Source: a virus
Length of the DNA: 54,587 bases
Direction: 5' to 3' (one strand)
Virus genome (UHGV): UHGV-0036483
Part shown: in pieces, positions 50,464-51,450 of the stretch
Layout: each line of letters starts with the position of its first letter
Position numbering within the stretch: the stretch's first letter is position 1
Program-made: the position numbers and the translations under genes
The notes under the pieces: model-generated
Told to the model about the DNA's origin: nothing
The model's input: only the letters and a program-made list of their open reading frames with translations
Databases searched by the model: none

Positions 50464-51450
50464 TCAAAGAGCGCCAGCGCGTGTATCACGTAGCGTTTTT
50501 GGTTTAAGCAGGAAATCAAGTGTCGCAGTGAAGCCATCGCCGAAGTAAAAATCTGAAGCATTGTTTTTGAACGTTTCAAAGTAGGCAACAAATCCGTTGA
50601 TGCTTTTGTCTTTCAGGTAGTCAGTGAACGCGTAGATCTTGCGTTCAAGATCCCGATCCAGTTCGGCAGGTGGCAACAGGCCATCAAACGTGCTGTTAAA
50701 TGCCTCCACTACGTCGGCAGCGTTTGCAGTGGCTGACAGCTTGCGCCATTTTTCAGCATCAGCCAGATACCCATCAAATTTAGTTACCCGGCAAATGTTA
50801 ACAGGCTTAGGAGTTCCACCACGGCTACGCCATTGCGTTAAAGCCCACTCGATCACTAATGTGATCTCATCCTCTGTGTATGCTTTACGTGTTTTTGTTT
50901 CTGTCAGTAGTTCTGTAAATGGCTTGGCATCACGACATTTGCATCCTGCCTTGTCGTTGTAGAATGCCAGACAACGCAATGCCGCTTCGTTTACACCATC
51001 ATGATTGACATGTTTTTCTTCTGGGGGAATACAAGGGGGTATATCTTTAATGTTCTCTTTACTGGTTATATATGACTGATTAGGGTTGCTCTCTGCCACT
51101 ACCCCCGGTTGCTTTGTGCCACTACCCTGGTTGCTCTCTGCCACTACCCCCGGTTGCTTTGTGCCACTACCTGACAGTGAAGGTAAAACGATTACATAGA
51201 AATTGCTCGTTTGTTCTTTCCCTCCGATTAAATATCGAGGCTGTTTTAGTAACAAACCTTTTTTGCAAAGAGCCTCGATTGCTCTCATTGCCGTGCTTTT
51301 GTTTATTTCGCATTGCTTCGCTATGTGCTGGTAAGAAGGGTAACACTCTCCGTTATCGTTAGCGTTATCAGCCAACTTTAACAGCACCAGTTTGTGCATT
51401 GGGTTGCCGACCTCAGTATGGAATACCTCGACCATTAGCCGCATACTCAT
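50464..51450 (-). CDS. replication initiator (lambda O-like) containing origin iterons
   Basis: N-terminal HTH (KLADNANDNGECYPSYQHIAKQCEINKSTAMRAIEALCKKGLL), internal iterons, AGGAGG RBS. Confidence 0.65.
   Translation of the reverse strand: MSMRLMVEVFHTEVGNPMHKLVLLKLADNANDNGECYPSYQHIAKQCEINKSTAMRAIEALCKKGLLLKQPRYLIGGKEQTSNFYVIVLPSLSGSGTKQPGVVAESNQGSGTKQPGVVAESNPNQSYITSKENIKDIPPCIPPEEKHVNHDGVNEAALRCLAFYNDKAGCKCRDAKPFTELLTETKTRKAYTEDEITLVIEWALTQWRSRGGTPKPVNICRVTKFDGYLADAEKWRKLSATANAADVVEAFNSTFDGLLPPAELDRDLERKIYAFTDYLKDKSINGFVAYFETFKNNASDFYFGDGFTATLDFLLKPKTLRDTRAGAL
51084..51172. repeat. four ~22-bp direct iterons (putative origin of replication) inside the initiator gene
   Basis: GCCACTACC cores at 51095, 51118, 51140, 51163 in GGTTGCT(C/T)T(C/G)TGCCACTACCC units; AT-rich stretch adjacent. 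Confidence 0.6.

Follow-up and report, generated by a model that had tools for sequence, protein, structure and literature searches.

The replication region of the virus genome UHGV-0036483 was analysed within the whole available stretch of DNA, 54,587 base pairs (bp) given as one strand (the window, to which all feature coordinates refer). In size and in gene content the window corresponds to the complete genome of a temperate phage. The second gene of its leftward early operon, which is divergent from a gene for a CI-type repressor, encodes a replication initiator, and within this gene lie four short repeats (iterons) and an adjoining AT-rich tract, the subject of this analysis (Table 1). 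The replication region was 89-92% identical to that of Enterobacteria phage mEp021 and phages mEp554, mEp010 and mEp044, and phage mEp013 showed 90% identity over 84% of it; its sequence identifies the window as an mEp021-like (mEpimmI) coliphage. The mEpimmI group consists of Nus-dependent, non-lambdoid coliphages; in one collection of isolates from human faeces their frequency equalled that of lambdoid phages (PMC11893012). The paper on the mEpimmI genomes mentions no origin, iterons or helicase (PMC11893012).

Table 1. Features of the replication region and iteron classes of close relatives (nt, nucleotides; aa, amino acids; HTH, helix-turn-helix)
Feature	Position	Strand	Remarks
Replication initiator gene	50464..51450	-	328 aa; HTH_36 N-domain, repeat-encoded linker, middle domain, P22 gp18-like tail
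N-domain coding region	51172..51450	-	aa 1-93; Pfam HTH_36; putative recognition helix INKSTAMRAIEALCKKG, aa 49-65
Iteron 1	51152..51171	-	GGTAGTGGCACAAAGCAACC (gene orientation); gene nt 280-299, frame 0
Iteron 2	51129..51148	-	GGTAGTGGCAGAGAGCAACC; gene nt 303-322, frame 2
Iteron 3	51107..51126	-	GGTAGTGGCACAAAGCAACC; gene nt 325-344, frame 0
Iteron 4	51084..51103	-	GGTAGTGGCAGAGAGCAACC; gene nt 348-367, frame 2; adjoins the AT-rich tract
AT-rich tract, candidate DNA-unwinding element	51040..51083	-	Low G + C content; first ~33 nt almost invariant in 10 relatives
9-mer AATCAGTCA	51073..51081	-	Gene nt 370; first of the AAYCAGTMA pair
9-mer AACCAGTAA	51059..51067	-	Gene nt 384; second copy, spaced 14 bp from 51073..51081
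C-terminal tail coding region	50467..50724	-	aa 243-328; homologous to the P22 gp18 C-terminus
81-aa HTH protein	51472..51717	-	cro position, directly upstream of the initiator gene; N-domain paralogue; PHROG 4617, E = 1.3e-9
Sigma-70-like promoter candidate, TTGACC-16-TAAACT	51937..51964	-	Consensus scan; transcription of the leftward early operon from here would pass through the putative origin
CI-type repressor	52024..52671	+	HTH_3 and Peptidase_S24; transcribed divergently from the early operon with the putative origin
DnaB-like replicative helicase	46157..47572	-	Same leftward operon; PHROG 19, E = 3.6e-110; Pfam DnaB_C and DnaB
Iteron class A			Window, mEp021, L009; core GTGGC-N5-GCAAC; helix INKSTAMRAIEALCKKGLLL
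Iteron class B			mEp554, L012, L013; core GTGTC-N5-GACAC; helix I(S/G)KSTAMRA(V/I)DALCEKGLLI
Iteron class C			mEp010, mEp044, mEp013, L010, L011; core GTG(A/T)C-N5-G(T/A)CAC; helix ISKRTAMRAVDSLCEKGLLI
Alternative cassette, example	L006 (mEp515) 764-1819	-	Gene nt 391-480; also in L007 and in 33 of L014-L048

The array consists of four 20-bp units, GGTTGCT(C/T)T(C/G)TGCCACTACC, which start at 51084, 51107, 51129 and 51152 with a spacing of 23, 22 and 23 bp. In the gene it occupies nt 280-367 (aa 94-122), between the HTH_36 domain (aa 16-67) and the conserved C-terminal part of the protein (from approximately aa 150). An initial annotation of this DNA had placed four GCCACTACC cores at 51095, 51118, 51140 and 51163, and these positions were borne out: the core occurs exactly four times in the window, against a shuffle expectation of 0.17, and none of 100 shuffles gave four copies. 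The 20-mer GGTTGCTYTSTGCCACTACC matched at the four unit starts (0.00 matches expected), and no further match was present elsewhere in the window when up to three mismatches were allowed. Tandem Repeats Finder, which the same annotation had proposed as a check, recovered the array at 51084-51171 with a period of 23 (3.9 copies, 84% matches) and a period of 45 (2.0 copies, 100% matches), and the array was the top periodicity of 20-25 nt across the whole 54.6-kb window. The unit as originally written, GCCACTACCC, needs one correction: there are indeed four units, but the trailing C is found in only three of them, a T following the unit at 51152-51171. The array (aa 94-123) is translated as GSGTKQPGVVAESNQ GSGTKQPGVVAESNP, and the repeated linker peptide that had been predicted, SGTKQPGVVAESN, is present twice, at aa 95-107 and 110-122. 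The AT-rich stretch said to follow the repeats in gene orientation was found as well; the 40 nt after iteron 4 have a G + C content of 0.28, compared with 0.46 for the whole gene, and the 30-mers of lowest G + C content in the gene (0.23) lie inside them.

Adjacent units are read in alternating frames (0, 2, 0, 2), GGT AGT GGC giving G-S-G and G GTA GTG GCA giving V-V-A, and only the 45-bp double unit is in frame. Since one motif is read in two frames, it is a repeat of DNA and not of protein. All relatives with this N-domain have their repeats at gene nt 280, 303, 325 and 348. Third-codon positions were compared among 10 relatives carrying the same N-domain type: all 18 in the iteron core (GGTAGTG.CA......ACC) were invariant, compared with 31 of 93 in the adjacent N-domain (Fisher p = 5e-8). 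Three results show that the repeats are constrained as DNA: their use of two reading frames, the fixed third-codon positions of the core and a tracking between iteron class and the HTH region of the protein.

This tracking was seen among close relatives, the iterons of which fall into the three classes of Table 1. Iteron class went together with HTH residues 49-68, the predicted recognition helix, in all cluster representatives examined, and a hybrid protein (P0055) had hybrid repeats. The residues that differ between the classes are 50, 52, 59, 60, 63 and 68. Proteins of the L012 type combine class-A residues at positions 41 and 46 with class-B repeats, which narrows the candidate specificity residues to 50, 59, 63 and 68. 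In the window four of the five arm positions of the dyad GTGGC-N5-GCAAC pair, and the dyads of the relatives are perfect (GTGTC-N5-GACAC, GTGAC-N5-GTCAC); in the wider family the arms reach 7 bp, for example GGTGCAG-GAG-CTGCACC. A change in the left arm is paired with the complementary change in the right arm, which indicates that the unit is a short inverted repeat with its half-sites one helical turn apart, as would be expected for the site of a dimeric HTH protein. On a tentative reading, the three combinations of iteron and HTH region would provide a small recognition code for the HTH_36 domain.

The number of iterons was counted in 113 of 120 cluster representatives (90% identity), those in which the linker could be delimited. 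Four iterons were present in 99 of them, two in 10 and six in 4; L013 has six in its DNA. Linkers with two, four or six iterons are 17, 32 or 47 aa long, the steps being whole 45-bp units.

In mEp515, MagusPhagus and 33 IMG/VR loci the C-terminal two-thirds of the gene are shared with the window at high identity and another cassette stands in front (Table 1). It encodes a Lin1244_N (PF14297) N-domain and has four GGGTCA(T/A/G)GA repeats 11 bp apart (frames 0, 2, 1, 0), followed by 50 nt with a G + C content of 0.22; homology to the window resumes approximately 90 nt past the last repeat. N-domain, repeats and AT tract are exchanged together, which is the behaviour of a specificity unit of initiator and origin.

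In the wider family, homologues of the N-domain with 53-61% identity (53-58% by tblastn over aa 1-89) were found in the lambdoid Stx2 phages Stx2a_WGPS2 and phiXuzhou21, in Pectobacterium phage ZF40 and in Klebsiella and Vibrio phages (including Vibrio D75). On visual inspection all 58 distinct loci, six annotated examples included, had 3-7 repeats of the type GGTAGTGCA-N5-TTCACC, 21-24 bp apart, straight after the N-domain. Many of these repeats are perfect palindromes, and the array was the top periodicity of 20-25 nt within the locus of approximately 3.2 kb in 52 of the 58 loci. The cassette is joined to at least four types of C-terminal domain, followed by genes for a DnaB-like helicase, a primase/helicase or a 'replication protein'. 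In ZF40 the same N-domain type is followed by a DnaB-like helicase; the C-terminal end of the ZF40 initiator resembles the gp18 tail by eye. By its repeats and N-domain the origin cassette of the window is a member of this HTH_36-type initiator family. The fetched records contained no origin annotation for initiator genes of the family, and none was described in the literature searched; the 'Eru' paper on the replication regions that non-lambdoid Stx phages carry does not describe iterons or origins of HTH_36 initiators. PLSDB, too, contains homologues of the HTH_36 N-domain, on 'plasmid' records that are of phage size and non-mobilizable. Ten of these records are from Arsenophonus; examples from the whole set are NZ_CP123557.1 (28 kb, Arsenophonus nasoniae) and NZ_CP118695.1 (41 kb, Klebsiella). 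They may represent phage-plasmids, or phage genomes that have been circularised, with this type of origin, and were left out of the evidence.

The AT-rich tract is itself conserved: 34 of 43 positions were invariant across the 10 relatives, with a single variable position in the first 33 nt. It contains two copies of a 9-mer, AAYCAGTMA. Of the 65 distinct loci of the family, 62 have two or three copies of this motif just past their iterons (L049-L054 and L056-L135, gene nt ~330-410, among others). The spacing is 14 bp in the mEp group (frames 0/2) and 17 (+12) bp in the wider family (frames 2/1/1), and the peptides encoded by the region differ between lineages (RTSHSFEPVNEP as opposed to NQSYITSK) while the DNA motif is retained. 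Since the 9-mers are read in different frames (all three across lineages) and give different peptides, they are conserved as DNA. The pair is kept although the iterons have diverged, the C-terminal domains are of at least four kinds and the helicase partners differ. Tentatively, and with less than even confidence, we suggest that the AAYCAGTMA pair or triplet is a second, previously undescribed sequence-specific element of the origin, which could be an unwinding site or a single-strand-binding site for the initiator. By analogy, the 9-mers could be compared with the DnaA-trio or with the repeats in the DNA-unwinding elements (DUEs) of plasmids that Rep binds as single-stranded DNA (ssDNA).

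The N-terminal domain of the initiator matched Pfam HTH_36 (E = 1.3e-14, aa 16-67), and the protein matched PHROGs 428, 8540, 391 and 4617 ('replication initiation O-like / replication initiation protein'). In mEp021 and mEp554 it is annotated as 'putative replication protein' or 'DNA replication protein O'. A sequence search of the PDB gave one weak match, to the winged HTH domain of the GntR-type protein PdhR (E = 0.42), in which helix 2 and helix 3 are aligned; because this alignment is weak, the helix assignment in Table 1 is put forward as putative. The tail showed 37% identity over 90 aa with the C-terminus of P22 gp18 (BLASTP, E = 2e-14), and tblastn gave matches to P22, HK97 O and CUS-3 O; it is presumably the part of the protein that recruits the helicase. 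An AlphaFold model of the initiator, based on an alignment of 39 sequences of close relatives, had a mean predicted local distance difference test (pLDDT) score of 48.7; it was confident at aa ~150-235 only and very low in the linker. A Foldseek search of the PDB with this model gave no match at E <= 0.001, and no conclusion was drawn from the model or from the search. The initial annotation had called the protein O-like. This holds for its architecture, but not for its parts: Phage_rep_O (PF04492) had no match in the initiator at E <= 0.01 (lambda O scored 123 bits and P22 gp18 129 bits), BLASTP against lambda O returned spurious 12-residue matches only, and hhalign of the two N-domain profiles, window and lambda O, gave a probability of 2.3%. 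The N-domain is HTH_36 and not Phage_rep_O, and tail and helicase are like P22 gp18 and gp12 rather than lambda O and P. A Pfam match to a Rep_3-type domain was also absent at E <= 0.01.

We consider it quite likely that the iterons at 51084-51171 and the AT tract at 51040-51083, with its 9-mers, form the theta-type origin of this mEp021-like temperate coliphage, and that the iterons would be bound by the HTH_36 N-domain of the protein encoded there. Such an origin would follow the lambda/P22 plan but use another kind of DNA-binding domain. If the process resembles that of lambda O and P22 gp18, early leftward transcription starting in the promoter region beside the repressor gene would supply the initiator. 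Dimers of it would bind the dyad cores (GTGGC-N5-GCAAC) of the four iterons to form an O-some-like complex, which would destabilise or open the neighbouring AT-rich tract, possibly through sequence-specific contacts with the 9-mers. The gp18-like C-terminal tail would then recruit the phage's own gp12-like DnaB helicase to the opened DNA, a lambda P-type loader not being involved.

Other explanations of the repeats were weighed against this origin. The repeat could be a neutral or protein-level tandem duplication, arising by slippage in a disordered linker and having no function as DNA; the 45-bp double unit keeps the frame and is repeated with 100% identity, copy number changes by whole 45-bp units, and the linker has a very low pLDDT in the model. 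We regard this as quite improbable. The basic unit of 22/23 bp is out of frame, so that one DNA motif yields two peptides, and synonymous sites that vary in the neighbouring domain are fixed throughout the core. The four units of mEp554 and mEp010 are not perfect duplications, yet number, spacing and core are retained in them, and every one of the 58 family loci has repeats at this place, with differing sequences. It is unlikely, too, that the repeats are sites at which the initiator acts in regulation only (autoregulation, titration or copy control) and that initiation takes place elsewhere. It is true that plasmid iterons are generally known to serve control as well as initiation (reviewed in PMC4980987), and that initiation at 51.0-51.2 kb is itself deduced from sequence. 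However, the window has no second iteron-like site at up to three mismatches, its promoter region included, which leaves the initiator no other cluster to act on. In every case the repeats adjoin an AT-rich tract, as is the hallmark of unwinding elements, and oriλ, which has this layout, is a site of demonstrated initiation (PMC3349717, PMC7466680).

The chance that the repeats are bound by another protein (the 81-aa paralogue, the CI repressor or a factor of the host, for example DnaA) appears very small. The open reading frame upstream of the initiator gene is indeed paralogous to the N-domain of the initiator (32% identity over 59 aa, E = 1e-9), but its product hardly varies between the three iteron classes, while the HTH region of the initiator changes with them; because of this constancy the 81-aa protein is an unlikely iteron binder. 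No iteron-like sequence was present in the intergenic region on the repressor/cro side. DnaA boxes (TTWTNCACA) are not enriched in the window (3, with 7.1 expected); the nearest, at 53291, is approximately 2 kb off, and there is no cluster by the AT tract. Hardly credible is an action of the repeats through nucleic-acid secondary structure, as an mRNA element for translation of the initiator or as ssDNA hairpins. Each unit does have partial dyad symmetry, but the 156-nt repeat region folds as a single strand no better than its shuffles (-13 compared with -14.7 kcal/mol, z = 0.66; 142 of 200 shuffles folded at least as well), and a structured RNA or ssDNA element was rejected for this reason.

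Several points nevertheless weigh against an origin at this place. Not only initiation here but also binding of the initiator to the repeats is a reading of the sequence, and the dyad of the window, with its one unpaired arm position, is imperfect. Iterons 1 and 3 are identical, as are iterons 2 and 4; a recent duplication of 45 bp could therefore account for the array in part. The codons of the helix and the repeats are only some 100 bp apart, which makes co-inheritance inseparable from co-evolution in the tracking of class with HTH region. Because the AlphaFold model is poor, the winged-helix fold and the positions of the specificity residues depend on the Pfam HTH_36 match and on the weak PdhR alignment. 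The helicase gene does not adjoin the initiator gene but lies approximately 2.9 kb downstream of it, past anti-repressor-like genes: Bro-N, Rha-like, ANT and metallophosphatase-like genes lie between the end of the initiator gene at 50464 and the start of the helicase gene at 47572. Finally, cumulative GC skew has a local minimum at approximately 50-52 kb, which coincides with the switch in gene orientation; being confounded with the direction of transcription, this minimum is uninformative and provides no independent evidence.

Among the neighbouring genes, the DnaB-like helicase showed 57% identity to P22 gp12 over 444 aa, and we infer that it is the partner of the initiator. No lambda P-type loader was found among the 28 open reading frames of the early region that were scanned. 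The leftward operon also has NinB, and the rightward arm contains genes for Erf, methyltransferases, NinG, RusA and a Q-like antiterminator. As to the promoter candidate of Table 1, the number of sites in the scan did not exceed the shuffle expectation. The 81-aa HTH protein is probably an early (Cro-like) regulator. A 39%-identical homologue of it is present in the phages with the alternative (Lin1244_N) cassette, and it is not a paralogue of the Lin1244_N domain of that cassette.

Between the initiator and helicase genes, 47591-48733 (- strand) encodes a 380-aa protein of PHROG 704 ('DNA repair exonuclease'). Metallophosphatase-like motifs were recognised in it by eye, with no confirming Pfam match, and matches of its N-terminal part to HTH domains were below threshold; the mEp021 equivalents of the genes at this place have a different arrangement. 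Past the stop codon of the initiator gene, a 10-bp repeat, CTCTAAAACG (3.2 copies, 50342-50373), is followed by a hairpin, AGCTCACCAGCGAGCT (50407-50422). The leftward operon may have a nut/boxB-like or terminator element in this region (50342-50422); three nut sites are reported to be used by mEp021 (PMC11893012). Further away, short direct repeats (TTGTGTACCAAA, TCACATCGTG and TATCGTGTCA) at 42233-42444, immediately 5' of the integrase gene (42441..43688, + strand), may be arm-type binding sites of attP. The open reading frame at 32845..38328 (1827 aa), which may be a tail-fibre-type gene judging by its size and position, contains in-frame tandem repeats of 42 bp (3.3 copies, 35409-35546) and 108 bp (~2 copies, 36028-36322) that look protein-level and unrelated to replication.

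For the mEpimmI coliphages the analysis would place the origin precisely (51040-51171) and supplies a replication scheme. The lambda design of an origin inside the initiator gene would extend to domains other than that of O (HTH_36, Lin1244_N), with different helicase-recruiting tails, and would be a portable cassette of a DNA-binding domain with its own repeats and AT tract. It can be used for the annotation of origins in prophages, including the Stx2 phages of the WGPS2 and phiXuzhou21 type that share the N-domain, for the design of phage-derived replicons and, through the natural iteron/helix classes, for the study of initiator-DNA specificity. The origin finding is sound but unsurprising, and overturns nothing known; the novelty lies in the family-wide cassette structure, the natural iteron/helix classes and the 9-mer pair in the unwinding region.

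In oriλ four 18-bp dyad-symmetric iterons and an AT-rich tract of 38-40 bp lie within gene O (PMC3349717, PMC7466680). In lambda O we located the iterons at nt 349-433, with a spacing of 20, 24 and 23 and in frames 0, 2, 2 and 1; the next 40 nt have a G + C content of 0.23, compared with 0.48 for the gene. The initial annotation had compared the window with lambda, where the iterons lie inside the initiator gene; the layout of the window agrees with that of lambda in spacing, dyad, position and AT tract alike. Both loci have four direct, dyad-symmetric repeats approximately two helical turns apart, in differing frames, between the N-domain and the C-terminal domain, with the AT tract on the C-terminal side, in a gene of an early operon divergent from a CI-type repressor. 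The window differs from lambda in having HTH_36 instead of Phage_rep_O, unrelated iterons (GGTAGTGGCA...GCAACC, as opposed to lambda ATCCCTCAAAACGAGGGA), a DnaB-like helicase of its own in place of a P-type loader, and two conserved 9-mers in the AT tract. In the Stx phages 933W and P27 there are six iterons and O is longer by 13 aa, and the smallest stretch of lambda DNA that can be unwound consists of two iterons and the AT tract (PMC7466680). The numbers of two, four and six among the relatives of the window fit the four iterons of lambda, the six of the Stx phages and the two of minimal oriλ (PMC7466680), and in these relatives as in 933W and P27 natural variation in iteron number changes the length of the linker; the initiators of 933W and P27, however, are true lambda-O homologues with lambda-like iterons.

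Iteron plasmids (RK2 TrfA, F RepE, R6K π) likewise have direct repeats beside an AT-rich unwinding element and a winged-helix initiator. On one strand of the DUE, specific repeats are bound by their Rep proteins as well (PMC4081077), and the 9-mers may be analogous to these. They differ in that their iterons lie outside the rep gene and also serve copy control of the handcuffing type, and the initiator of the window is without a Rep_3 domain. With the HTH_36 family (PHROG 8540/391) the window shares an array of the type GGTAGTG..A-N5-..CACC after the N-domain, followed by the AAYCAGTMA pair; the variable positions of the iterons, the spacing of the 9-mers (17 bp in the family, 14 bp in the window), the frames, the C-terminal domains and the partner genes are different.

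The window is also similar to the replication module of P22 (orf48-18-12), which has the related gp18 C-terminus (37% identity) and gp12 helicase (57%). P22 gene 18 also contains short direct repeats, TCGGTAAAA, at nt 362, 382 and 406, followed by an A-rich stretch. Unlike the window, P22 has a Phage_rep_O N-domain in gp18 and another repeat sequence, and its genes 18 and 12 abut, whereas their counterparts in the window are separated. Judged from these likenesses, the module of the window would be best described as a replication system of the P22 18/12 type in which the origin-recognition cassette has been replaced by one of the HTH_36 type.

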